The notes: generated by a model not told the origin, from the sequence alone. 64,000 bases of DNA from an uncultured Candidatus Saccharibacteria bacterium (GCA_965230915.1 OZ246395.1:536935-600934), one strand, 5' to 3'; counted from the stretch's first letter, positions 2,593 to 64,000 are shown. A program made the numbers and translations.

Positions 2593-2847
2593 TTACGAAA
2601 GGTGTGCTGAAACAAGTTTTGTCATTTCAAACATTGAAACCTGATCTTTTCCACCAAAAATTGGCTTTAATTTGTCATCAGCATTTATATTTCTTTTATT
2701 TGCTGAATCCTGTAAGTCATTTTTCTTTATGTATTCCCACAATTTCTTAGTAACTTCGGTTCTAGGCATTGGGCCTTTTCCAACTACTTCTTCTAGCTCT
2801 GCGCTAAGATTCATTGGTTTTGCGAGTCCTTTTGGAGTTTCTGCCAT
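2593..2847 (-). CDS. SWIB/MDM2 domain protein
   Basis: 84 aa. LSAELEEVVGKGPMPRTEVTKKLWEYIKKNDLQD matches the bacterial SWIB domain signature. Confidence 0.7.
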   Translation of the reverse strand: MAETPKGLAKPMNLSAELEEVVGKGPMPRTEVTKKLWEYIKKNDLQDSANKRNINADDKLKPIFGGKDQVSMFEMTKLVSAHLS

Positions 2848-3012
2848 TAAATAATCACCACCTAGAATTTAATTTAAATAAATATCTATGTGAATAATTT
2901 ACTTTGCCTAGGGAATATAAGCAATAGGCTGGGTAAAGGATGCTTTCAGCTATTGAGATTTACAACCAGATGGTAGTTGTTATAAATACTTATAATTCTT
3001 ATAATATCTTCG

Positions 3013-4134
3013 ATGGATCAACTCACAGACCTTAATAAAGTTACAGAAGAAATTATCGGAGCCGAAGAGCTTCAATCGTTTTTAGACCGCAAAGAAACAC
3101 TTAACCACTACATAGGATTTGAAATTTCAGGACTTGTCCACTTAGGGACTGGTTTGGCTTCTGGGCTTGTTGTACGCGAACTTCAAAAACTCGGAGTTAA
3201 TACTTGTTACTTTTTAGCAGATTGGCACACATGGATAAATAACAAATTAGGCGGAGATCACGAATTTATTAAAAAGGTTGGAGAATTATACTTTGGCCCG
3301 GCATTAAAAATTTCGGCACAAATCGCAGGAGCACGACCAGATTTAATTGAAATAAAAAACGGTTCTGATTTATACCACAATAACGACCGATACTGGCAAG
3401 AAATTGTCGATATTGGAAAGAATTTAACACTTTCTAGAATGGTCAAATCAACAACTATAATGGGTCGTAGTGAATCAGAAAGCATGCCTTTTGCTTACTT
3501 AATTTACCCTGCAATGCAGGTTGCGGATATTTACGAAATGAATCGCAACGTTGCCCATGCCGGAACTGACCAGAGAAAAATCCATGTTATCGCTCGTGAA
3601 GTTGCTGATAAATTAAAAGTGAATCCATTAAAAGATTCGGCTGGAAATATAATTAAGCCAATAGCAATTCACCATCACCTACTTTTAGGATTACAAAAAC
3701 CTGCAACATGGCCATTACCTGAAGGTGAAGAAAAAACTGCAATGCGTGCCCAAATGAAGATGAGCAAATCTATAAAAGGTTCGGCAATTTTTATTCATGA
3801 CACTCCAGAAGAAATTAGCGAAAAAATTAAGGGAGCTTTTTGCCCAGAAAAAGAGACTGAATACAATCCTGTTTTAGACTGGTGCGAACATATGATTTTC
3901 CCAATTAAAGGTCGAATGGAAATTAAACGCGATGAAAAATTTGGCGGAAATATTTTGGCAAATTCTTACGAAGAACTAAAAGACCATTTTGCATCTGGCA
4001 ATTTGCACCCGGTAGATTTAAAAAATAATGTTGCTGAAATTTTGATCGAAATGCTAGAACCAGCTCGAAAGATGTTTGATTCTGATGACGCAAGAGATTT
4101 GATTAAAGAGATTAGAGAAAGACAATCTAGATAG
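3013..4134 (+). CDS. tyrS: tyrosyl-tRNA synthetase, archaeal/eukaryotic type (class Ic)
   Basis: Class I HIGH-like segment GFEISGLVHLGTG and a KMSKS motif. The block YPAMQVADIYEMNRNVAHAGTDQRKIHVIARE aligns with the M. jannaschii TyrRS segment [32 protein letters not shown]. TrpRS cannot be fully excluded. Confidence 0.75.
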   Translation: MDQLTDLNKVTEEIIGAEELQSFLDRKETLNHYIGFEISGLVHLGTGLASGLVVRELQKLGVNTCYFLADWHTWINNKLGGDHEFIKKVGELYFGPALKISAQIAGARPDLIEIKNGSDLYHNNDRYWQEIVDIGKNLTLSRMVKSTTIMGRSESESMPFAYLIYPAMQVADIYEMNRNVAHAGTDQRKIHVIAREVADKLKVNPLKDSAGNIIKPIAIHHHLLLGLQKPATWPLPEGEEKTAMRAQMKMSKSIKGSAIFIHDTPEEISEKIKGAFCPEKETEYNPVLDWCEHMIFPIKGRMEIKRDEKFGGNILANSYEELKDHFASGNLHPVDLKNNVAEILIEMLEPARKMFDSDDARDLIKEIRERQSR

Positions 4135-4609
4135 AATCAGCTTTATTTAATTCTTCTTCATATCTTAAAATTTCCTCCATTGTTGGAACATTATATCTGG
4201 CTCTCAACTCATCTGTAGTTTCGGGATCAACAGGATACAAATACCAACTATCACTATCCTTATCTTTTCTATATTGTGTCCCATATTTTTGGTACGGCTG
4301 ACTAGTATTAGTTAAGTATCTGTCTGTTGCAGCCGCATATAACCATAGCCCACGCTTTTCACCTAACTCAGCAGCCTTTTCAGCAAGATCCTTAGCCTTT
4401 AGAAAGTCGTCAGGGCTATTGCCATGCTGAAAAATCATTGCAGCGTGATAATAATCTTCTCCGGTCAATAATTGTTTCCGCGTAATTAGTTTTTCGACTT
4501 TAATTCTCCGATCCATATCTCTGTCAGAAGTACCCTTTTTAAAATCTTTACCATTGGGATTTCTATCATTTTGGTCTTCATCATAAATTGCTTTTAACTG
4601 CTTGTTCAT
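4127..4609 (-). CDS. hypothetical protein (160 aa)
   Basis: Track ORF, convergent with tyrS with an 8-nt overlap. Charged and hydrophilic, no recognised motif. Confidence 0.5.
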   Translation of the reverse strand: MNKQLKAIYDEDQNDRNPNGKDFKKGTSDRDMDRRIKVEKLITRKQLLTGEDYYHAAMIFQHGNSPDDFLKAKDLAEKAAELGEKRGLWLYAAATDRYLTNTSQPYQKYGTQYRKDKDSDSWYLYPVDPETTDELRARYNVPTMEEILRYEEELNKADSI

Positions 4610-26325: not shown

Positions 26326-29265
26326 TTATTCTATGCCGTGCAGATATGGAAAGAATGTGAACGACTTCTCGGGTTCATTTGGCTCGCAATTCAGGTCAGC
26401 GAGACGAGGATATTGATGAACCCAATATTTATCGCCCTCCAAAACTACCGTATCGCCAGCGCTATCCGCAATAACAAGAACAACCCCACCAGGAACCGCC
26501 GACCCAACGATGGTATAGTCGATACCCTCGACAGTTGGCGTCAATACAATGGCGAATGGATCTTCGCAAGTCGGATCAGCAAACAGCGGTGGTGCAGTCT
26601 CTACAACTGTGGGCTGAACGCCACAAACCGTGTGGTCGCCCAAATCGATAACCTGAGGCGAGTAGTCACTCGGCAAAGTATAAGTCGGAGCGTTAGCTAC
26701 GGCCAATACAACGGCGATGTTTGCTGTCGGATTTTCCGGGTACACCGAATAACTGATCTGATCAGTATCGTCGGGGACCTCAACCAAACCGACTTCGTTA
26801 CATGCCCCTGGCTCGATTACATCGAACAATGCCAATTTGGGCACCACAACAGTAGGCTTGAAAGTGCAATCAGGCGCCGCCGGGTAAGTATGACTCCATT
26901 GCGTATCACCTGTAAGAGTGAAAGCATTCGGATCAACCGATTCGCGCAACTCTGCACTAACAGTGACCGACTTGCTAGGTTCAACTTCACCGACATACGA
27001 ATAGCGAATGAAATCGCTATTATCGAAATTGATAGAGGCATCAACCTCGCAAGTCGGATCAACAAACTCAGGCGCAACCGTTTCGACTTCAATCGGTGGC
27101 ACAGAACAATCCGGGGCAACACTGAAATCATGAATCCACGTTGACGATCCAACAATCTCAAAGAAAGTCGGGTCGACAGAATTGCGCAATTCAGCGGTCA
27201 CAGTGACGCGCTCGCCTGCAGCAACCGAACCATCTGTGTCGTACTTGATAAAATCGTCTTCCGGAGTGATTACATCGGCGACAACAGAACAAGTTTCTTC
27301 AACAAACGTCGGTGCAGTTGCTGTTAACTGAGTCGGTTCGACAGTGCAATCGGGCGCTTCATCGAATGTGTGAGACCAAAGCTTAGGTTCCATAAGCGTA
27401 TAGCTTTCAGAATCCACCGATTGTCGCAATTGTGCTCCAACTTCGACGAACTGGCCTGCTGAAACCGTACCGGTAACTACATAAGACACAAAATCAGTGT
27501 CAGATGTAACAACCTGGGCCGGCGTTTCGCATGTCTGTTCTTCGAAAACTGGCGCTTCTGCCATCAGTTCGATCGGATCTACGCATTCAACAAAATCACC
27601 CAAATACACGGCAAACTGCCAATCTGGGTTGGTTGAAACAAAACCATCTTCGACTTCGTGTGTTACAACAACAAACCCTTCGATCGGATCGACAGGATCC
27701 ACCAAATAGGTAATGTGTTCTGTCGTGGCCGGAGTTACCGAGCCTTCAACACCACACACACCTTCAGGAATTATCGTAACTTGCGGATTCTCTGGCATCA
27801 CACTCACAGGACAATTGAGAGATTCAACCGTCACAAAAGTGTGGGACCAACTGATCTCTCCAACAGCCATCTTATTCTTGATGCTGGCTTTGAGACTCGC
27901 ATTCACTTCAACGGTACTACCTGGCGTTGTTTCTCCCATAACTTCGTAAACGAAGTCGTTGTCGGGGAAAGAAACCGACGCACTCTGCATGGAACATGTC
28001 GGTTCATTGAATGTCGGGTCGTCAGGTTCGACCGAGTCGGGTGCGAATGTGTATTTTACACACCCAATGGTCAAGTCCTGTATGATTCCGCCACCAAAAA
28101 CGCCACTTCCCAAAGCAAAGCCGACGGCCAAAGCATGAGCATCTGGATATGCATCCAAGATCTTATACATCTCGCCTTGGACTGGGTAACCCTGAGATGG
28201 GTAACCAATATTCGGCAACCCCGGGAAAGTAGTAGTGTTAATGGAATTACTCCACCAAACATCACCATAATAGCCGGGTTCATACGCCATATAGCCATCG
28301 AAAGTGCCATTGTTGTCGAGATCAACCTTAAGCTGAAGTCCTGCAGGGGGAGTAACCGAATAACCGCTGATAGCAGCATAAGTAAGTGACAAAGTTCCGG
28401 TAGTCCCGATTTCCTTCAAATGGAAGTTAATCGGGTAATAACCCTTTACCTTGTCCTGACCTGTAGTGCCATTTGTATGGATCAACAAACCTTGCGGCGA
28501 TGCCCCATTTTGCGCGACAAACTCGTAATAGCCCGACGTGCCGGTCTCTGTGTCGAGATCCCAACCCTGTCGGTTGCTAAAAGTTATCGGCTCAGCGTTA
28601 GTCACCTCGTCGCAGGCCAGAGGCTCAGAGACGAAATAGGTTGTCTTGCAGTCGAATGTGATCGACTTAAGCACTGAAGTGCCAGGCTGATATGATCCGT
28701 AAGAAACTCCATATGCCACAACCATGAGATTAGGATTGGCAGTAAGAATTTCATCAAGATCAACCTGATGCCGTGTCTCGTAAGGCTCGGCAGTTTGATT
28801 TGCGGCATTCGGAACGCCCAGATCTGTGCCTGTTCGCCACCAATAGCCGTCAAACACGCCCTTATTGTCGGGATCATTGTAAACCTGCTCCCAAACAAGA
28901 GTTGCACCAGGATCACCATCAGACCACCCAGTTACCGCAAGTTGATATGTCGCGGTACCGGTACGATCAAAATCGAGCGAGTCAATTTCAGAAAGAGGTA
29001 CATTGACCTCTTTCATCAAAAACACTTTCGACAGATTCTGCGGGTTCACCATCTCCAAGCCGTTAGGCGTGAACATGTACGAACCTTCAAATGTTCCGTT
29101 GTAATTGTTACTTACAACCCAGCCATCCAAAGCATAGGGTGTAACAATTACCTCAGAGTCTTCGCAGATTGCATCTCCCGGAAAGACCGCCTGCGCACTC
29201 CCATAGGACAAAACATTCATGAAAAGCGCGCATACCAAAATCCCCAATACCATCCTAAAACGCAT
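26326..29265 (-). CDS. large secreted Cys-containing tandem-repeat protein (adhesin-like), GC-rich
   Basis: Start placed at MRFRMVLGILVCALFMNVLSYGSAQA (signal peptide, AAAGGA RBS 8 nt upstream). The track ORF extends to 29328. At least four ~85-aa repeats share the pattern ...(T/Q)C(E/S)...DF..Y...G.......V.V.A.L..S.D......(W)SHT(F/Y)..APDC(T/S). Markedly GC-rich relative to the flanks. Confidence 0.75.
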   Translation of the reverse strand: MRFRMVLGILVCALFMNVLSYGSAQAVFPGDAICEDSEVIVTPYALDGWVVSNNYNGTFEGSYMFTPNGLEMVNPQNLSKVFLMKEVNVPLSEIDSLDFDRTGTATYQLAVTGWSDGDPGATLVWEQVYNDPDNKGVFDGYWWRTGTDLGVPNAANQTAEPYETRHQVDLDEILTANPNLMVVAYGVSYGSYQPGTSVLKSITFDCKTTYFVSEPLACDEVTNAEPITFSNRQGWDLDTETGTSGYYEFVAQNGASPQGLLIHTNGTTGQDKVKGYYPINFHLKEIGTTGTLSLTYAAISGYSVTPPAGLQLKVDLDNNGTFDGYMAYEPGYYGDVWWSNSINTTTFPGLPNIGYPSQGYPVQGEMYKILDAYPDAHALAVGFALGSGVFGGGIIQDLTIGCVKYTFAPDSVEPDDPTFNEPTCSMQSASVSFPDNDFVYEVMGETTPGSTVEVNASLKASIKNKMAVGEISWSHTFVTVESLNCPVSVMPENPQVTIIPEGVCGVEGSVTPATTEHITYLVDPVDPIEGFVVVTHEVEDGFVSTNPDWQFAVYLGDFVECVDPIELMAEAPVFEEQTCETPAQVVTSDTDFVSYVVTGTVSAGQFVEVGAQLRQSVDSESYTLMEPKLWSHTFDEAPDCTVEPTQLTATAPTFVEETCSVVADVITPEDDFIKYDTDGSVAAGERVTVTAELRNSVDPTFFEIVGSSTWIHDFSVAPDCSVPPIEVETVAPEFVDPTCEVDASINFDNSDFIRYSYVGEVEPSKSVTVSAELRESVDPNAFTLTGDTQWSHTYPAAPDCTFKPTVVVPKLALFDVIEPGACNEVGLVEVPDDTDQISYSVYPENPTANIAVVLAVANAPTYTLPSDYSPQVIDLGDHTVCGVQPTVVETAPPLFADPTCEDPFAIVLTPTVEGIDYTIVGSAVPGGVVLVIADSAGDTVVLEGDKYWVHQYPRLADLNCEPNEPEKSFTFFPYLHGIE

Positions 29266-29421
29266 AGCAAGATCCTTTCTGATCTTCAGTGAAAACGTAG
29301 TTTCGGCAACATCCGTCACTATCCCCATTCAGGAATTGATATCCGTCTTGTGTGAATACCAACTAGTAAGTCTTCGTCGACTTGCTAATAGTCTGCCTTA
29401 AAATCTCGCGTTTTTGCGAAA

Positions 29422-37476: not shown

Positions 37477-37820
37477 TTTTTGGATTTTAAATATATGAAT
37501 AACAAAAAATGTAAAATAATATAAGTAGAATAGAATATTATTATCCCGGTAATAACTGGCATAAATATATCCCAAGTTAATACACCAAAAACGCACCTTT
37601 CGTAATAATTAGCATCTCTACAATAATAATTATCAATTATTGATGTCCCATAAGAGAAAATACTAGTTATTAATAAAAGCAGAATAGAAAAAATACTAAA
37701 GCGTATTAATCCAATTTCTTTTTTTAAATTTAAAAAAGATATCAATGGAACTGAAATAATTGATAGGAATAATATTATGAGAAACACACCCTGAACAACA
37801 TCCATAGATATTCCCATCAT
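37473..37820 (-). CDS. small polytopic membrane protein (115 aa) inserted between gatA and gatB
   Basis: Its ATG overlaps the gatA stop (ATGA) and its TGA overlaps the gatB ATG (ATGA). GGAGG sits 9 nt upstream of the ATG, inside the gatA 3' end. About 3 TM helices. Confidence 0.5.
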   Translation of the reverse strand: MMGISMDVVQGVFLIILFLSIISVPLISFLNLKKEIGLIRFSIFSILLLLITSIFSYGTSIIDNYYCRDANYYERCVFGVLTWDIFMPVITGIIIFYSTYIILHFLLFIYLKSKK

Positions 37821-39229
37821 TTAGCCCTCCTCTCACCAAACTTAATCTCCTGCTCATAGGCATAACCAACCTTAAACAATAATCCTTCTGTAAAATGATC
37901 TCCAATAAGTTGAATTCCGATTGGCAAATTTTCTTTGCTAAAACCAGCTGGAACCGATAACGCTGGTAATCCTGCTAAATTAACAGGAACAGTCAAAATA
38001 TCCATCAAATACATTTTAATTGGGTCTTCAGTATTCTCTCCAATTTTTGGCGGAAGTACTGGCGAAACCGGTCCTAAAATTACATCAACTTCTTTAAATG
38101 CTTTTTTGAAATCTTCAATAATTAGTGTTCGAACTTTTTGTGCTTTTAAATAATATGCATCGTAAAACCCTGCTGATAATGTATAAGTCCCAAGCATTAT
38201 TCTGCGTTTTGCTTCATCGCCGAATTTATCGCGACCGTGACCGAATCGGATTCCATCAAAACGCCCTAAGTTTGAAGAAACTTCACTCGGCGTGACTATA
38301 TAATAGACAGCCAACGCATATTCACTTGTTGGCAGAGAAATCTCTTTTATTTCTGCCCCAAGTTCTTTAAATTTTCCGATAGCATCTTTAGTTGCTTGTA
38401 AAACTTCAGTATCAACTGCATCGGATAAATATTCTTTTGGAATTCCAATTTTTAAACCTTTGACTCCATCTTTTATATTCGCTAAGTAATCTGGAATATT
38501 TTCTTTTGAAGAAGTTGCATCATTCGGATCAAACCCTGCAGTAATTTGCAAAACTCGAGCTGAATCCTCAACTGTTTTTGTAATATGCCCAACCGAATCT
38601 AAAGATGATGCCATTGCAATTACTCCATACCTCGAAACTCTTCCATATGTTGGTTTTATAGCAACGGTATTTGTAAATGAAGCTGGATTTCGTAAAGATC
38701 CACCGGTGTCAGTTCCGGTTGAAACAACTGTGAAATCTGAAGCAACCGAAGCGCCAGTTCCACTTGAAGATCCACCGGCAACTCGTGATAAATCATATGG
38801 ATTTTTAGTAGCTCCAAAATCGCTATTTTCACCACTAGCACCGTGCGCGAATGCATCGCAATTTAATTTTCCTAAAACGATTGCGCCTGCAGCTGCAATT
38901 TTGCGAACAACAGTTGCATCGTAAGGCGGAATATATCCTTTTAAAATGTTTGATGCAGCAGTTGTTTCAATGCCTTTTGTAGAAATAATATCTTTATGCC
39001 CGAATGGAATTCCAAGTAACGGTTTTTCTACAAACAATTTTTCTAAATCTGAAGACGATGCAATGAGCTCATCAACATTTTTAGCTTCTGCTCTCGCTGA
39101 ATCAAAAGTTTTAGTTATAAATGAATTAATTTCACCATCTTTGGCTTCAATATTTGAAATGTATTTTTCGATTAATTCTGAGGCAGTAATTTCTTTTGAC
39201 TTTAGTTTCTCTATTAAGTCTGAAATCAT
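37817..39229 (-). CDS. gatA: Glu-tRNA(Gln)/Asp-tRNA(Asn) amidotransferase subunit A (amidase signature family)
   Basis: 470 aa. Amidase signature GGSSSGTGASVAS. 4-nt overlap with gatC. Confidence 0.95.
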   Translation of the reverse strand: MISDLIEKLKSKEITASELIEKYISNIEAKDGEINSFITKTFDSARAEAKNVDELIASSSDLEKLFVEKPLLGIPFGHKDIISTKGIETTAASNILKGYIPPYDATVVRKIAAAGAIVLGKLNCDAFAHGASGENSDFGATKNPYDLSRVAGGSSSGTGASVASDFTVVSTGTDTGGSLRNPASFTNTVAIKPTYGRVSRYGVIAMASSLDSVGHITKTVEDSARVLQITAGFDPNDATSSKENIPDYLANIKDGVKGLKIGIPKEYLSDAVDTEVLQATKDAIGKFKELGAEIKEISLPTSEYALAVYYIVTPSEVSSNLGRFDGIRFGHGRDKFGDEAKRRIMLGTYTLSAGFYDAYYLKAQKVRTLIIEDFKKAFKEVDVILGPVSPVLPPKIGENTEDPIKMYLMDILTVPVNLAGLPALSVPAGFSKENLPIGIQLIGDHFTEGLLFKVGYAYEQEIKFGERRAK

Positions 39230-42743: not shown

Positions 42744-43112
42744 CTATGCGGCAGCTCTTAGGGGTTCTTGCTCAAGAACTCTACATGCCATTGGAGAATG
42801 GTCGTCCTCAGGGTCGCCATTTTCCTCAAAGAGAGTCCCGCCATTTTCATTGGCGAAATTTTGAATTGCCTCAAGGGCATTGTGCCTTGCAGCATGTGTT
42901 AACCCCTCTCGCTCGAAGATTGCTACAGCCTGCAACATAGCTGGATTTGTACCTGGCGAATCATTCTCATTTTTCCTCGTCAGCAAAAAAATAAGGGCGG
43001 CACGCACAAGTTGCTTTGCAGGATCCCTTGGCTGCGTTTGCTGCATGATTTCACCTAGCGTTATTTCAGGGGTATCCTTTTTTGGAGCTTTACTCTTCTT
43101 GGAACTGCCCAT
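42744..43112 (-). CDS. hypothetical protein (122 aa), locally GC-rich
   Basis: AGGAG 9 nt upstream of the ATG. Composition is atypical for the window (Ala/Pro/Glu-rich, GC-rich codons). Confidence 0.45.
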   Translation of the reverse strand: MGSSKKSKAPKKDTPEITLGEIMQQTQPRDPAKQLVRAALIFLLTRKNENDSPGTNPAMLQAVAIFEREGLTHAARHNALEAIQNFANENGGTLFEENGDPEDDHSPMACRVLEQEPLRAAA

Positions 43113-57495: not shown

Positions 57496-60030
57496 ATGTT
57501 TGCTAAAGCATTAAAGATTTGCTTTGTAGCTGTTGTAATTTCAATACTATCCTTCACACAAATTATCTTTGCGCAAGAGCCCAAAGTACAAGTTTTTTTG
57601 CCTGTAATATCAGGTGGAATTGCGCAAGAGTCAGAAGAAGATTTATTCGATGCTGAATATGAACAAATAAAGGTTCTACTTGAAAAAGAGCTTCGTAACA
57701 CTATTCCAAATATCCAATATAACAACCATAGTTACAATTGGATTAGACAAGACGATGACTGGATTTACGGGTATGTACTTGCAAGTATTAATCAATCTGC
57801 TCAACCAGACGGATATATTTTCTTAGTAAACAAACTGGAAAATAATATTTCAGTTGCATATATGTATACTCAGAAATTTGATGAATGGGTCGATCTTCTG
57901 CCGGATAATATTATACCGGCTGAGCGTCAAAAATATTTCTATTCATCAGCAAAATCCGCACACATTGCAGGTGATCTAGCTAGCGACTCATCTAGTGACC
58001 CCCAACTTTCGTTTCCATGGAGAGAGGGTTATTCTTGGAGATTCAATGGCGGCCCACACAATAATGCTGGCTCCGGAGTTACTAAGGAACCTTGGTCGGG
58101 TTTAGACTTTGGAATTCCTTACCAATCTGCAACTTCTGATCCAACCGACACTACGGTTGTAACATCCAGAGATGGATATGTATTAATTATTGAACCAAAT
58201 TGCGCCGTAACAATAGGATATGAAGATGGGTGGTCATTAAGATACCTTCACGTTAGTGAAATTACAGTATTCGAAGGACAATTTATTGAAAGAGGGACAA
58301 AGATAGCAAAAGTTGATACCGACAACCCATGTTATTTAGGCCCAGAGGATGGACCACATTTACACCTCGGCCTAAAATACAATGGAGATTTTACAGATTT
58401 TGATGGTAAATATATCGGCGGATGGTTGGTTAATAAGAGCACTTCTATATATCAAGGAACCTTAACCCTTGGTTCTATTGCCACCCTACCGGCATCGAGC
58501 ACAAAAGTTGGAAGAGGCTCTAGTTATGTAGAAAATAGGGGTTTCATTGGGAGCCAATGGTTTATTGGACCTGTCGTTTATAAAAAGCCAACTGTCGGAG
58601 TAGGCGTCTGTATAGAACCGAATTCATGCTACCAACTAAATACTGGTTCTGTATTACAAACTTCTTCAACCAACCAAATCAGCTATATAATGCCAGCTAA
58701 AGGCTATATGGTTGAATTCCGCAAGGATATGACACTAAATATTTCAACAGCTAATACTGATGCAACAAACGTGAATTTTAGCTGTCTTGATTTTGATGTA
58801 ACCGATTTTCAAAATTATAACTTTCCTAACACTAACCTTAAACTAAAGGACTACTCTACCGACATACAAATCCAACAAGGAACATGTAACCCAAATGACC
58901 GGCCAACAAAAACAGGATCAACAACATCACCTACAAATCCGACACCGACAGAACCATCGACAAATTATGGATGTAACAACCAAACAACAGGAGTCAAATT
59001 CCTAAATAACTCAGGTAGCTGCTTCTATATGACCGCCGGCAAAGCTAGCCTTCCATTTAGCCCAACCAAAATTGAAGTACTAGATACGGTTCGGAAATAC
59101 GATATATCGATATGCAATGCAAAGGGAGAATGCGACGAATTCAACAATAGCGCAAGCATCGACCACTCATCTGTATCACGCCCTTTTACAAGAGTTGAAG
59201 TAACTCCTCAAGGATTAGTAAGCAGTGATGCGGTGGGTTCATGCAAAACGAGTACAGGGCGTAAAGTCCAGTTTTCAACAATGCAAAATGGCGTAAAGTA
59301 TTACACCGATCGAAGCTATACAGTTAAGAATGTGGATAAACTTGAATTGATTGGCATGAAGTTTCTGATGACGCCAAATGATGATAAATATAATGGTGAT
59401 CCAGAATACATTACGTGCGACATCAAAAAGACCACACAAATTGTAATAGCAATAGATGGCCGTGTTAGAACTTTATCGAGCTGGATGAGAAGCATGCCAT
59501 ACGAGCGAATGAATCGTGAAATCGGAGTCACTGACAACGATATGCAACACTTCGACCTGTATGCATGTACACAAAAAGCTGGCTACAAATTAAGACTTGG
59601 GGGACCTCAATCCGATGGATCAAGCAACATAAAAAGCAACTACATCATTATATTCCGAGATGCAGCCCAAGAAAAAGCTACTGACTGTTCGGCAAAGTTT
59701 AATGTTCCCCCAGACCAACCAGTGCTCAAAAGTGTTGAAGTCACAACGACTTTAACATCTGCGCCACTTCTCGAATGGAGCATGTCGGATAGAAACTTCA
59801 CAGACGACTATCTCGAAGCTTATGTAAAAGTATGGAAGGATGACCAGCTTATAAGTACACCTGATTGGCTACCAATTGGTGTAACACAATGGATTCCTTT
59901 GTGGAATGACCCGGGTTCATATAGAGCCCAGGTAGTTGTGCGCGACAGCAAAGGAATCGAAGTACTTTCGAATGAGATACAATACCAACTTTCAGCACCA
60001 ATTGAAGCTTGTGTTGTTTATACAAACTAG
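57496..60030 (+). CDS. secreted M23 (LytM-type) peptidase with large C-terminal Cys-containing region
   Basis: Signal peptide. M23 motifs HxxxD-like (HNNAGSGVTKEPWSGLDF) and GPHLHLG. Thr/Pro linker TKTGSTTSPTNPTPTEPST, then about 350 aa with spaced Cys. Confidence 0.7.
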   Translation: MFAKALKICFVAVVISILSFTQIIFAQEPKVQVFLPVISGGIAQESEEDLFDAEYEQIKVLLEKELRNTIPNIQYNNHSYNWIRQDDDWIYGYVLASINQSAQPDGYIFLVNKLENNISVAYMYTQKFDEWVDLLPDNIIPAERQKYFYSSAKSAHIAGDLASDSSSDPQLSFPWREGYSWRFNGGPHNNAGSGVTKEPWSGLDFGIPYQSATSDPTDTTVVTSRDGYVLIIEPNCAVTIGYEDGWSLRYLHVSEITVFEGQFIERGTKIAKVDTDNPCYLGPEDGPHLHLGLKYNGDFTDFDGKYIGGWLVNKSTSIYQGTLTLGSIATLPASSTKVGRGSSYVENRGFIGSQWFIGPVVYKKPTVGVGVCIEPNSCYQLNTGSVLQTSSTNQISYIMPAKGYMVEFRKDMTLNISTANTDATNVNFSCLDFDVTDFQNYNFPNTNLKLKDYSTDIQIQQGTCNPNDRPTKTGSTTSPTNPTPTEPSTNYGCNNQTTGVKFLNNSGSCFYMTAGKASLPFSPTKIEVLDTVRKYDISICNAKGECDEFNNSASIDHSSVSRPFTRVEVTPQGLVSSDAVGSCKTSTGRKVQFSTMQNGVKYYTDRSYTVKNVDKLELIGMKFLMTPNDDKYNGDPEYITCDIKKTTQIVIAIDGRVRTLSSWMRSMPYERMNREIGVTDNDMQHFDLYACTQKAGYKLRLGGPQSDGSSNIKSNYIIIFRDAAQEKATDCSAKFNVPPDQPVLKSVEVTTTLTSAPLLEWSMSDRNFTDDYLEAYVKVWKDDQLISTPDWLPIGVTQWIPLWNDPGSYRAQVVVRDSKGIEVLSNEIQYQLSAPIEACVVYTN

Positions 60031-60120
60031 TTTGAATTAGTTGAAAATGCCAGAAGTGGAGAAAACTTAATCTATCCTAATCGGATAAATTAAATCTCTG
60101 CTTCTGGTTCTTTTTTACAT

Positions 60121-60690
60121 TTACTTAAGAGTAAATTGCAAAACCGAAGCTCCCAAAGCTGAAGCTTGATCAGCAGATGCGACCTTAAAATAAGCCGTTT
60201 TAGCTGAATATAAATTCTTATCTTCGCTATCTGGGTACCAAAGATACTTAGCGATCATTACTGCAGCATCTGATGTTCCAGGAATTGGAGTTTCAACAAC
60301 AATTTCACATCCTTCCCCACCGGTTTCTCCTTTAGATGTACCAACTGTAATCTCATCATTTGATGTTTGTCTGAATCCCTCACTAAAAGCTTCACAAGCT
60401 TTATAGTTTGTTTGGCCAAAACCAGGTCCAGCTTGCACTGATACCCAAATTCTTTCTGCCTGAACGGCTTTGGTATTGGGGTTTTCGTATACAGAAATTT
60501 CTCCGTTTTCCGGGGTTATTGAAGTATAAGTTGATGGATAATAAAAAGCGTAATTATCTCCCGATTCTATTTTAAATAGAGGCTGGTTGGCTTCTTGGAC
60601 ATCTCTTTTCATGCCCCGCATAATAAAAAGTACAAAACCTCCTATGACTACAGCAATAATCAATAGGGTTATTATAATTTTTTTATTCAT
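60121..60690 (-). CDS. hypothetical membrane-anchored protein
   Basis: Start trimmed to MNKKIIITLLIIAVVIGGFVLFIM. The longer track ORF would run through the upstream intrinsic terminator. Confidence 0.45.
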   Translation of the reverse strand: MNKKIIITLLIIAVVIGGFVLFIMRGMKRDVQEANQPLFKIESGDNYAFYYPSTYTSITPENGEISVYENPNTKAVQAERIWVSVQAGPGFGQTNYKACEAFSEGFRQTSNDEITVGTSKGETGGEGCEIVVETPIPGTSDAAVMIAKYLWYPDSEDKNLYSAKTAYFKVASADQASALGASVLQFTLK

Positions 60691-60730
60691 ATAAAAAGTA
60701 TCAGGGATTTTAAAGCTAATTACAACGAGT

Positions 60731-60780
60731 AGAAATAAAAAAACCGCCGCAAGGTGTAGATAAAAACACCTCACGGCGGT
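60731..60780 (-). terminator. intrinsic terminator closing the GC-rich islet operon
   Basis: Nested hairpin ACCGCCG..GGTGT-agataaaa-ACACC..CGGCGGT (60743-60780). The plus strand has an A-run immediately 5', so the minus strand reads hairpin then UUUUUUUAUUU. Confidence 0.7.
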
Positions 60781-60792
60781 CAGACTCTATGA

Positions 60793-61143
60793 TCAGTAAT
60801 ACCGATTTGGGTAATCCCTCGGCGGTTGCGTCACATAAAGCAGATTCTCGGCCAAGTTCTGTTCAAATCGCCCATTGAGCAGAATGAAAACCTCTCCGAG
60901 TGGTCTCTCGAGCGTAACGATGTTATGCTCGTCAGGTGTTACATGCAGCCAAAGTATTCCGCCGCTAGTAAACCATTCAGCACCGGGTGTGTGACCCGAC
61001 GTCGAATATTGAGTCTCGAGATACCCCCACATAAAAGGGTTTTTCTTATATTCTTCTCGAAACTTGATTAACGCAGCCTCGACCTTTTTGGCCCATTCGT
61101 TCCGCAGCTCTGTGGCCTTTGCCTTCGATTCTTTGGTAATCAT
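60793..61143 (-). CDS. hypothetical protein (116 aa), islet gene 2
   Basis: 4-nt overlap with the upstream paralog-A gene. GC-rich codon usage. No recognised motif. Confidence 0.5.
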   Translation of the reverse strand: MITKESKAKATELRNEWAKKVEAALIKFREEYKKNPFMWGYLETQYSTSGHTPGAEWFTSGGILWLHVTPDEHNIVTLERPLGEVFILLNGRFEQNLAENLLYVTQPPRDYPNRYY

Positions 61144-61577
61144 TCCCCCTCCATATTGAAGTTTTTTACCACAGCATCCAGAATCGGACGATGGGCGGAC
61201 TGCAGGTCAGACGCAATCTTGATATGCGCGGAATCGCTCTTTTCCTGCAAACCAAACAACACCAAAATTTCATTAATGGCAGGCCCAGTTGCGGGATATT
61301 TGCCATATTGATCACCGCGAACGATGATCTTATATTCTCCGTCCTTATCGGCCTCGTAGCAGAACATTACTAAACCTGCGCCGTTCAACCGATACCCACC
61401 GGGGTCAATAACGATGCTGATAGCGATCTCGTGGATGCTCTTCTTCAACAATTCCTTCACCAACTTATCACACGGTGGAATGGTACCTTTCTCCGCTTCC
61501 GGATGCATCATGGTGGTGAAAATAAGAATCGCCTTCAAAGCCTCAACAAGTTTACCCAACCTCTTTAGAGTCAACAT
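61140..61577 (-). CDS. hypothetical protein, paralog A (145 aa) of a two-member family
   Basis: Shares blocks with the 125-aa protein: PxC..L...., YRLNGAGL vs FRLNGSGL, YPATGPAINEIL vs YPKTGPALNAVL. Confidence 0.55.
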   Translation of the reverse strand: MLTLKRLGKLVEALKAILIFTTMMHPEAEKGTIPPCDKLVKELLKKSIHEIAISIVIDPGGYRLNGAGLVMFCYEADKDGEYKIIVRGDQYGKYPATGPAINEILVLFGLQEKSDSAHIKIASDLQSAHRPILDAVVKNFNMEGE

Positions 61578-61630
61578 CTTCGGTTCCTTTTCTATTGGGA
61601 TGGCTTTATTCGCACACGAAAACTGGGTGC

Positions 61631-61659
61631 ATTATATATTTATTAACGAAAGTAGTCAA
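61631..61659 (-). promoter_or_regulatory. near-consensus sigma70 promoter for paralog A (TTGACT-17-TATAAT)
   Basis: Minus strand reads TTGACTACTTTCGTTAATAAATATATAAT. The -35 is at 61659-61654 and the -10 at 61636-61631. Confidence 0.6.
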
Positions 61660-61877
61660 TACTATGGGACTAGTGGCGGACCTTAAAGAACTTAATTGGA
61701 ATCGGATTTTTGAGTTTATATTGAAATTTGTGTAGTTTTCGACTTGATCTTCCCAAGTCTCATCAGTCACTAAGTGAGAACTACTCCAACGTTATCTCTT
61801 TATTTTTTAAAAATTCCGATATTCCGGAAAAAGAGAAGCCACGTTGGCGGCAAGCTTTTCAGCTTTTGAGAAACTAT

Positions 61878-62255
61878 CTACGCCGAATTTTTCACCAGCA
61901 ATTCTTTGAGCCGAGATTCTGGCTTGGGTTGCAAGTGATACTGCTGAAGAACAGCGTTCAACGCTGGACCGGTTTTCGGATAATGGCTGTACTGATCGTA
62001 ATCAAGTACACGAAGCGTTTCTTCGCTCTCGTTATATCCCAGGCGGAGACCCGATCCGTTCAATCGGAAGTCGCGTTGCTGCAAAATTTGCAATGCTGTT
62101 GCTTCAAGGCCAATGCGGGTCGCAGTGTTGATCAAAGCCGAACATGCTGGACCGAAAGTGATCTCTTCCTGGGAACAACGTTGCCCAAGAGCAATCATTT
62201 CTGGTAATGCATTGACCAAATTCTGAAGTGTTACTTCATTCACTGGACGGGACAT
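61878..62255 (-). CDS. hypothetical protein, paralog B (125 aa)
   Basis: See paralog A. GC-rich. Confidence 0.55.
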   Translation of the reverse strand: MSRPVNEVTLQNLVNALPEMIALGQRCSQEEITFGPACSALINTATRIGLEATALQILQQRDFRLNGSGLRLGYNESEETLRVLDYDQYSHYPKTGPALNAVLQQYHLQPKPESRLKELLVKNSA

Positions 62256-62321
62256 GTAGATATTCCTTTGTTAAATGTTCTAAGCACAATATTCATGCAA
62301 GCATAGCAAGAATTAGTTGAT

Positions 62322-62350
62322 ATTATACGTTTTTTTGCGAAAATTGTCAA
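62322..62350 (-). promoter_or_regulatory. consensus sigma70 promoter for paralog B (TTGACA-17-TATAAT)
   Basis: Minus strand reads TTGACAATTTTCGCAAAAAAACGTATAAT. The -35 is at 62350-62345 and the -10 at 62327-62322. It lies immediately 3' of tRNA-Ala. Confidence 0.65.
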
Positions 62351-62364
62351 TACTATAGGACTAA

Positions 62365-62441
62365 TGGTGGACCGAATGGGACTTGAACCCATGACCCCTT
62401 CCATGCCATGGAAGTGCTCTGGCCAACTGAGCTACCGGCCC
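62365..62441 (-). tRNA. tRNA-Ala (GGC), CCA encoded
   Basis: RC reads GGGCCGGTAGCTCAGTTGGCCAGAGCACTTCCATGGCATGGAAGGGGTCATGGGTTCAAGTCCCATTCGGTCCACCA. G3:U70 Ala identity pair, anticodon loop ATGGCAT. Confidence 0.9.
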
Positions 62442-62737
62442 GCGTTTACGCGATTTCTAACAAGTCCCAATTATACGCGAATTTATAATTCTCTGCTAAT
62501 TATGGTGTTGTCTGCGATTCGCTCGTTGGGAATGGCCGACCTTCTGGCTGGTCGAATTGCTCAAACATAGTGCTGCTCATTCTTATGCTCGATAAGATTA
62601 TTAAAATTATGACGATTATAGGAAGTAGGATTATGTACCACCAGCTGTCTTTGTTCATATTCATATAATAGATATGTACCAGTGTGAATTCAAGTAACTA
62701 TCTAGCTCAACTTCACAAATTATATATAATAGATTTA

Positions 62738-64000
62738 ATGCCACTTAATCCTGAAGGAAATTCCGAAGTAGAATCAATAATTCCAGCTAACGAACCAACC
62801 CCACAAATAAGGCCAAATCAATTCACATTACAAAACGATGTAATTCCAGATCAATTTGTTGCCTTACCGCTTACGGCAGATGTAGACCCAGCAACAGAGA
62901 CAAATCCAAGTGATTTTAGAATGATGAACCAATCTAGTCCAATTCCGAACCAATACGAGCTGGTAGCACGACCAAAAGTAACAAGCATTTCGCCTACTAC
63001 TGCCGAGAGAGCCTACGAATCTAGAGCTGCTGCTCCGCAAGTAGCACCTAATAGGCCAAAGAAATTCGATCTTATAAACGAATCTCGTCCAATCGATAAA
63101 AGGTTTCAGCTACAAGAAGCACCTAAACCAGAGAGTAAACCAACAGCCATAGAGCAAATGAACCCGGAATATTGGGGCGGAATATATGGTCGAATAAACC
63201 ACAAGCAAATAGTCGCAGAATACCTGGAAAACAGAAAAAAGCCTGTAACAGACGAAGATAGAATGCCAGAGTGGAGCGCACTCGTAAAACTTAAAGGGCT
63301 GATCGATTATTCAATAATAACAAAGGACTTAAGTAACCCTAAACTCCGAAGGAAGCCTGCAATATTTACTAATTATGCGTCTATTGCTGCAGACAGAGGA
63401 AGATATGACCCAAAAGAATTAGAAAAAAGAGGGATTTTATTACCTAATAATAACCAATTCAACATACTAGATGAGAGAGAAACAGATCCGCAAGCGAGAG
63501 AAAGATTTATTAGAGACTTCAAAAGAGAAGTGGATGAACTATGCGAGCTACAAGATACCTATAAAAAGGTTAAGCGTAGAATCTTAGATGATTTCGACGA
63601 CGAAGATTGGTCAGATACATTAGATTATTTAAATAACATGTTATTTGGAGCCGCTGCTAAAGAAAATCTGGATTTTAATATGATATCCGCTCTTAGAATG
63701 GTTCTTCCTAGCATAAGAGAGGATTTAATAAAGCATGGTCAACTGCCTGATATGGCCGCCGAGCAAGCAGAAACCCGGCGAAGACACCAAGAAGCAAAAT
63801 CATTCGATTATAAGTCGGTACCATATGAAATAACTATGCAGGCTGATGCAACTATGATACCTATAGCTAATGAACCTATGGTACGCGATGTCCTAGCAAA
63901 AACTATTCCTGGATACTTTCACGGATTTCTAGACAAAATTGAATTTAATAGAAATGGCCGAAGCAGAGTCATAAACGGTGAAGAATATGTTACACGTGGA
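62738..64000 (+). CDS. hypothetical protein, partial (runs off window end); Pro/Gln-rich N-terminus
   Basis: 421 uninterrupted sense codons from ATG 62738 to the window edge, with TATATATAAT just upstream. Absent from the track because no stop lies within the window. Confidence 0.6.
   Translation, partial: MPLNPEGNSEVESIIPANEPTPQIRPNQFTLQNDVIPDQFVALPLTADVDPATETNPSDFRMMNQSSPIPNQYELVARPKVTSISPTTAERAYESRAAAPQVAPNRPKKFDLINESRPIDKRFQLQEAPKPESKPTAIEQMNPEYWGGIYGRINHKQIVAEYLENRKKPVTDEDRMPEWSALVKLKGLIDYSIITKDLSNPKLRRKPAIFTNYASIAADRGRYDPKELEKRGILLPNNNQFNILDERETDPQARERFIRDFKREVDELCELQDTYKKVKRRILDDFDDEDWSDTLDYLNNMLFGAAAKENLDFNMISALRMVLPSIREDLIKHGQLPDMAAEQAETRRRHQEAKSFDYKSVPYEITMQADATMIPIANEPMVRDVLAKTIPGYFHGFLDKIEFNRNGRSRVINGEEYVTRG

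Follow-up and report, generated by a model that had tools for sequence, protein, structure and literature searches.

The 64,000-nucleotide stretch of DNA analyzed here (the window), from an uncultured Candidatus Saccharibacteria bacterium, carried an islet of approximately 1.6 kb that began at the base next to the 3' end of a tRNA-Ala(GGC) gene. The islet contained two paralogous genes, A and B, of a previously unnamed protein family and a third gene, C. A and B each lay behind a consensus promoter, and each promoter lay inside one copy of a 52-nt repeat. The best reading overall, which we hold with moderate confidence, is that the islet was horizontally acquired and is phage-derived, and that it consists of moron-like cassettes placed at the tRNA 3' end, probably by att-type recombination. 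In the first cassette, gene B would have the promoter P_B and weak terminators; in the second, genes A and C would share the promoter P_A and a strong terminator. Most probably, related small elements derived from phage were inserted twice in succession, or once beside an element already present. Whatever else the element or elements carried, including the recombinase, would then have been lost, or may never have been resident. The islet is of a familiar general kind and, on present evidence, not a new kind of system.

Layout and composition of the islet

The features of the locus were as follows.

62470..62499, minus strand: candidate tRNA promoter, TTAGCA-18-TATAAT, 10/12 (consensus scan)
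62365-62441, minus strand: tRNA-Ala(GGC), with encoded CCA and G3:U70 (ARAGORN; Rfam tRNA, 60.4 bits)
62322..62373, minus strand: repeat copy 1, the last 9 nt of the tRNA (GGTCCACCA) and 43 nt with P_B
62350..62322, minus strand: promoter P_B, TTGACA-17-TATAAT, 12/12 (consensus scan), inside repeat copy 1
61878..62255, minus strand: gene B, 125 aa, AAGGA ribosome-binding site, GC 48%, GC3 0.48
61814..61851, minus strand: two weak terminator-like hairpins 3' of gene B, in a 185-nt AT-rich spacer
61631..61682, minus strand: repeat copy 2, a tRNA 3' fragment (GGTCCGCCA) and 43 nt with P_A
61659..61631, minus strand: promoter P_A, TTGACT-17-TATAAT, 11/12 (consensus scan), inside repeat copy 2
61140..61577, minus strand: gene A, 145 aa, AAGGA ribosome-binding site, GC3 0.57
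60793..61143, minus strand: gene C, a 116-aa ORFan, GGAGG ribosome-binding site, GC3 0.53
60732..60781, minus strand: strong intrinsic terminator including the T-run, stem 60742-60781 of 16 bp with 9 GC pairs

Along the minus strand, the tRNA was followed by repeat copy 1, gene B, the spacer, repeat copy 2, gene A, gene C and the terminator. The preliminary description had placed tRNA-Ala(GGC) next to a GC-rich stretch, and ARAGORN and Rfam agreed, with the 3' end of the intact tRNA at 62365 abutting the islet. CCA was encoded in 5/5 tRNAs of the window, so tRNA-Ala(GGC) matched the host style. An imported tRNA-Ala was rejected on this ground and because both GCC and GCT codons were used by host genes. 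The flanks of the islet were ordinary chromosomal genes, encoding a membrane protein, an M23 peptidase, ribosomal protein L21, a signal peptidase, Wzy and a flippase. The proteins neighboring the islet were singletons at 90% clustering.

Genes A and C overlapped by ATGA, with the start of C overlapping the stop of A, and gene C is predicted from this arrangement to be translationally coupled to gene A. The earlier claim that this operon, paralog A and the 116-aa ORF, is closed by a strong terminator held. The 16-bp stem lay 12 nt past the gene C stop codon and folded at -30.9 kcal/mol (z -7.5). The hairpins after gene B folded no better than shuffles (z -1.6). Since no terminator separated the tRNA from gene B, transcriptional read-through into B is possible. 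Both units would be strongly and constitutively transcribed by the housekeeping sigma factor, and gene B may additionally be transcribed by read-through from the tRNA. Two further candidates in this region were rejected. A sub-threshold Rfam match to HPnc0260 (62267-62403, plus strand) was spurious and came from the 3' half of the tRNA read in antisense, and an antisense ORF (61728-62207, plus strand) simply followed from GC-rich coding on the opposite strand.

The composition of the three genes was foreign to the host. The host genome, represented by a 945-kb contig, is small, AT-rich and nearly Shine-Dalgarno-free. GC3 was 0.57 in A, 0.48 in B and 0.53 in C, compared to 0.279±0.044 for the 50 other ORFs of the window (maximum 0.42). 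The whole stretch from 60.79 to 62.30 kb had been called GC-rich in a genome of about 33% GC. This was true of the three coding sequences (46.8-48.1%) but not of the promoter blocks, the spacer of 185 nt that follows B or the 5' UTRs, which were AT-rich and host-like, and the window itself was measured at 36.5%. The partial ORF at 62738, which had been considered a possible part of the same acquired region, had host-like GC3 (0.29) and lacked a Shine-Dalgarno site; it was therefore set apart from the islet.

Translation signals followed the same division. Among ORFs of at least 110 aa in the window, 7/51 had a Shine-Dalgarno motif ahead of any plausible start, and four of these seven were GC-rich: A, C, a 1000-aa ORF and a 122-aa ORF. 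Gene B, which was skipped by the ORF picker, also had a Shine-Dalgarno site by eye. Among ORFs of ordinary composition (at least 110 aa), such sites were present in 2/47. By hand arithmetic, the comparison of 5/5 GC-rich ORFs with 2/47 ordinary ORFs gave a Fisher p of ~8e-6. The 1000-aa and 122-aa ORFs belonged to two more insertions of ~48% GC, at 26.3-29.3 kb and 42.7-43.1 kb respectively. Neither was beside a tRNA, which indicated that foreign DNA enters this genome without tRNA targeting. The GC3 of 0.48-0.57, the Shine-Dalgarno sites and the presence of the family in phage-like and bacterial contigs all supported the initial proposal that the islet is horizontally acquired cargo.

The protein family and its relatives

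Genes A and B were aligned with 34% identity over 83 aa (E 2e-13), and the 145- and 125-aa ORFs are thus paralogs, as first noticed. The blocks that define the family were EV.FGHPCS.LI, E[FY]RLNGAGLKL and VGGDQ..YP.TGP. Gene B is a member of this unnamed FGHPCS / RLNGAGLKL / GGDQ..YP.TGP family, and gene A is a divergent member in which FGHPCS has decayed to TIPPCD. An exhaustive HMM search with a profile of A and B recovered 21 convincing relatives of 111-144 aa and one dubious 269-aa repeat protein. Pattern scans placed members at 26 metagenome loci, at one Gammaproteobacteria MAG locus and on one IMG/VR contig.

The paralogs had been reported as belonging to no nameable family, and the database searches bore this out. 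Scans of A, B and C with Pfam, NCBIfam, PADLOC and PHROGs gave only sub-threshold noise (FKBP-like_N, RcpB, PsbP), and the other family members had no match in Pfam or PHROGs. PADLOC-DB 2.0, which models known and candidate anti-phage defense proteins, returned 0 families at E <= 1 when queried with A, B, C and a neighboring 189-aa membrane protein, and the family profile gave 0 matches to PDB sequences at E <= 10. A word-indexed search of 5.8 billion proteins with A, B and C returned self-matches only. At >=90% clustering, there were no homologs besides the genome's own copies, and no housekeeping family was matched.

The preliminary description had suggested structure prediction for the paralogs and for the 116-aa protein. 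The AlphaFold2 model of B, built from a 23-sequence alignment, was confident (pLDDT 93.5, pTM 0.83), with a predicted fold of four helices, a three-stranded sheet and two helices. Foldseek searches with this fold against PDB and BFVD found no significant relative. The prediction for gene C was also performed, but it was uninformative, since the single-sequence AlphaFold2 model was poor (pLDDT 44). Gene C was unrelated to the profile of the A/B family, and no homolog of it was found in the viral contigs, in any family locus retrieved or in the word-indexed protein search.

The relatives of A and B were found partly in a phage context. The IMG/VR contig (L004) encoded a tail sheath protein (PHROG E 2e-73) and a virion protein. 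Contig L015 encoded a ClpP-like, head-maturation-protease-like gene and a phage phosphoesterase, and in L024 a Lar-like zinc-ribbon gene, scoring below threshold, lay 1.2 kb downstream of the family gene. In L015, L024, L026 and several short contigs, small genes of one orientation formed syntenic runs. Two other contigs looked bacterial: in one (L022), the family gene stood alongside fmt and def, both recognized by eye, and an ELP3-like gene, and in the other (L003) alongside a DEAH helicase. The family gene was single-copy elsewhere, except in L030, where two paralogs were 1 kb apart. A tblastn search with B, A, the environmental member P0004 and the L004 member gave no match in 50,697 cultured phage genomes and 72,556 plasmids. 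Because of this absence and the single contig in IMG/VR, the term phage-derived rests on a handful of contigs.

The 52-nt repeat and the history of the two genes

Each paralog had been described as preceded by a consensus promoter, and the scan found these at 62350..62322 (12/12) and 61659..61631 (11/12). The number of such promoters was not special, since sigma-70 sites with >=11/12 consensus matches numbered 4 in 64 kb, compared to 4.3±2.3 in shuffles. Their placement was non-random: two of the four lay at homologous positions, ahead of two paralogous genes and inside the repeat. P_A and P_B were on the same strand and in the same register, 54 and 67 nt ahead of the two start codons. These promoters were specific to the locus, as family genes at 28 other loci showed only 6-9/12 upstream matches.

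The best local alignment of the repeat paired 62322-62373 with 61631-61682 over 52 nt, of which 41/52 (79%) were identical. The score was 54, compared to 21.4±2.2 for 300 shuffles, and the reported duplication of the promoter-bearing segment at about 80% was thereby reproduced. The repeat started at GGTCC in the tRNA acceptor 3' strand and ended at the final base of the -10 hexamer. Its first nine bases, GGTCC(A/G)CCA, correspond to the tRNA's final five acceptor-stem bases, its discriminator and its CCA. A copy of the last ~9 tRNA nt had been noted in the second segment, and GGTCCRCCA indeed occurred at only two sites in the 64-kb window, both at the repeat copies. Copy 2 matched 8/9 of the last 9 tRNA nt, in register and gap-free, for which the probability by chance was ~1e-4 by hand arithmetic. 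Conservation of the block extended beyond the two hexamers and spanned the non-functional tRNA fragment and spacer positions.

Tyrosine-integrase elements target the 3' end of tRNA genes, and the 52-nt block is probably a trace of att-type recombination at such a site. The proposal of an att-like scar stood in that the repeat holds the tRNA 3' end, but the repeat copies flanked gene B only and not the whole islet. No third repeat copy or tRNA fragment was found at the distal end (~60.79 kb, beyond gene C and the terminator). In addition, no integrase or recombinase domain was found in A, B, C, the 189-aa neighbor or ten flanking ORFs, in a window that ends 1.5 kb beyond the tRNA. The tRNA 3' 25-mer was absent from the viral contigs. 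The reading of the repeat as an att-like scar is plausible but unproven.

An unlikely but serious alternative is that the 52-nt block is no more than a shared module providing a strong promoter or operator, perhaps of the phage early-promoter type, and that the islet arrived by illegitimate or homologous recombination and is at the tRNA only incidentally. In favor of this alternative, the alignment stopped exactly at the last -10 base, and the two other foreign islets of the window were away from tRNAs. A phage contig (L031; small and large terminase, portal, 44-50% GC) also contained a 24/25 match to TAGTCCTATAGTATTGACA.TTTTC. However, a database as large as IMG/VR is estimated to contain a few chance matches to an 18-mer, the motif in L031 was followed by a terminator-like hairpin and had no good -10, and no second copy of it was present in the 13.9 kb of that contig that were searched. 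The module would also leave to chance (~1e-4) the 8/9 tRNA-end bases retained in copy 2, a 9-mer found nowhere else in 64 kb.

The relationship between A and B was examined against the rest of the family. The A-B bit score was 49.7, compared to 67 for A with P0004 and 73.6 for B with P0004, and each gene was closer to P0004 and several other environmental members than to the other. A and B were sisters in the NJ point estimate, with sisterhood recovered in 17/100 bootstraps. Their third codon positions were 33% identical, which is saturated. By these comparisons, A and B are anciently diverged family members. The pair is not a recent duplication in place, because the two genes were as distant from each other as from other members and their synonymous sites were saturated. 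The divergence of the genes would predate their arrival, since long residence at the host GC3 of 0.28 should have eroded values of 0.48-0.57. The 52-nt block would be younger or constrained, because it was 79% identical including the functionless tRNA fragment.

These data bear on a decidedly unlikely alternative, in which one acquired unit of tRNA 3' end, promoter and family gene was duplicated in tandem in place by slippage or unequal crossing-over, after which the genes diverged locally and selection held the promoter blocks alike. The 691-bp start-to-start spacing with repeat and gene head-to-tail, the sister placement in the NJ point estimate and the two paralogs 1 kb apart in L030 are all in its favor. 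However, A was no nearer to B than to members from unrelated samples, with 17% bootstrap for the pair. Over the time needed to saturate synonymous sites, the composition should have ameliorated, yet the GC3 of 0.48-0.57 was kept. Selection on promoters would also have to account for conservation of a non-functional tRNA fragment and spacer. The earlier suggestion of a tandem gene duplication begun inside the tRNA was accordingly not supported: relatives were closer than the paralog, third positions were 33% identical, and the GC3 of both genes was foreign.

A more doubtful possibility still is that the 52-nt block serves a miniature cassette system as its site of recombination. Small cassettes (~0.7-1 kb), each consisting of a promoter and a phage-family gene and lacking an integrase, would be inserted serially at the tRNA-Ala 3' end by a recombinase acting in trans, which might come from an infecting phage. 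This would produce a tRNA-anchored array of constitutive phage-derived genes, which the ultra-small bacterium might use against its own phages. A hint of variation in cassette B within the population came from the contigs of two independent sequencing runs, which both ended at the gene B stop codon.

Comparison with known systems and possible function

Under the preferred reading, a phage-derived islet acquired at the tRNA 3' end, two known kinds of element are the closest comparisons. Like tRNA-linked islets and degenerate integrative elements, this islet lay directly 3' of an intact tRNA, had foreign composition and codon use, contained a direct repeat holding the tRNA 3' end and carried accessory cargo of phage affinity. 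Unlike them, it had no integrase that we could find, its repeat bracketed 1/3 genes with no distal copy, the repeat consisted of 9 nt of tRNA and 43 nt of promoter, and the ~1.6 kb total was far smaller than typical islands.

Phage morons are independent promoter-gene-terminator units of deviant GC in prophages, for example those of lambdoid phages. The predicted signals of the islet resembled this arrangement, with a sigma-70-type promoter for each unit, a strong terminator after A-C and weak ones after B. In addition, the GC differed from that of the surroundings, and the family was found in phage-like contigs. However, no prophage surrounded the islet; the units stood in chromosomal DNA beside a tRNA, with flanks free of phage genes. 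In the phage-like contigs, the family gene lay within co-oriented runs and lacked its own promoter.

The products are predicted to be soluble cytoplasmic proteins. We would guess, with low confidence, that their role lies in phage-host conflict, perhaps in superinfection exclusion or in binding and neutralizing a phage or host factor. The conserved residues, a confident fold without a clear solved relative and the presence in uncultured phages make the family a reasonable candidate for such a role. A DNA-mimic or anti-restriction role was rejected, because the family was not acidic (median pI 7.1).

We give little credence to toxin-immunity or toxin-antitoxin content, in which A and C would form an addiction or immunity pair and B an orphan immunity paralog, comparable to acquired immunity-gene islands. 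The ATGA overlap of A and C fits a type II toxin-antitoxin pair; no Pfam, NCBIfam or PADLOC match accompanied it. The Imm52 immunity proteins known from polymorphic-toxin and T6SS systems (structure PDB 9oz0 chain A, PA3908) differed from the family in being about twice as long and in having no sequence relation to it, with 0/23 family members matching Pfam Imm52 at E <= 0.1. A structural match to 9oz0 was not recovered by Foldseek. No toxin domain, of the kind a cognate toxin beside an Imm52-like gene would carry, was found in A, B, C or their neighbors.

It is very improbable that these are native genes of unusual composition, such as highly expressed housekeeping genes: consensus promoters and strong ribosome-binding sites do suggest high expression, but this fails to explain the GC3 bias because ribosomal protein genes of the window have low GC3 (L19 0.18, L21 0.31), no homolog at >=90% clustering lay beyond the genome itself, no housekeeping family was matched, and the relatives were scattered in phage-like contigs.

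If the preferred reading of a phage-derived acquisition is true, the locus would be a clean, minimal case of a tiny, AT-rich, Shine-Dalgarno-free genome capturing and expressing phage-derived genes. The foreign genes would bring their own ribosome-binding sites and stand behind consensus promoters beside a tRNA. The analysis also flagged a family of ~110-145 aa with conserved His, Cys, Asn, Asp and Tyr positions. The locus serves mainly as a lead, for annotating the family and for the biology of mobile elements in small-genome bacteria, and it overturns nothing alone.

Shine-Dalgarno motifs and GC-rich ORFs

The Shine-Dalgarno motif was surveyed across the whole window. Among the ORFs of at least 110 aa, 7 of 51 carried the motif near any candidate start. 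The motif was present in all five GC-rich ORFs of the window (a count that includes gene B, scored by eye), whereas only 2 of 47 ORFs of ordinary composition had it. Host genes were nearly devoid of such motifs throughout the window. The survey pointed to the following places.

26326-29328, minus strand: second foreign-looking islet, one 1000-aa ORF, 48% GC, GC3 0.47
37817-39229: place pointed to by the survey
42744-43112, minus strand: third GC-rich ORF, small (122 aa), 48% GC, GC3 0.42
57496-60030: place pointed to by the survey

The edges of the 1000-aa ORF were sharp, with rplS (L19) on one side and a Clp ATPase gene on the other. AAGGA preceded Met-22, which was followed by a signal peptide, and internal repeats were present. 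Searches of Pfam and Rfam gave no match for this ORF. The 122-aa ORF had a TAGGAGA ribosome-binding site and was flanked by host genes on both sides. It showed no relation to the A/B family in hhalign.

Gene B at contig ends and the neighbouring gene

Two contigs from independent sequencing runs, L001 (window 59267-61882) and L002 (window 59532-61864), were 100% identical to the window. Both ended within 18 nt of the stop codon of gene B. The exact B protein had no record in the assemblies that gave these contigs, and none of the repeated k-mers in the window accounted for the break at B. Possible explanations are variability of gene B in the population and low coverage.

No recognisable promoter was observed at 60690-60741, the interval from the islet's strong terminator to the beginning of the gene for a 189-aa membrane protein. 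This gene may once have been dependent on signals from which the islet now separates it.

Phage-like contigs and family loci

The upstream half of the islet promoter block, TAGTCCTATAGTATTGACA.TTTTC, was matched at 24 of 25 positions in L031 (IMGVR_UViG_3300020008_000002, 2188-2212), a phage contig with terminase and portal genes and 44-50% GC. The match was intergenic, had a terminator-like hairpin after it and could be due to chance.

Two phage-like contigs bearing the family gene encoded tRNAs (L026, 9628-9699; L024, 4969-5045), and one tRNA of L026 had a CTA anticodon (amber suppressor-type). These tRNAs hint at a recoded phage. At two other loci, L011 (8178-8537) and L025 (2168-2590), the gene immediately after the family gene had a prepilin-type N-terminal methylation motif. 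The metagenome contig L030 carried two divergent family paralogs (2734-3087 and 4145-4498) on the same strand, about 1 kb apart. This pair resembled the A/B arrangement in the window.
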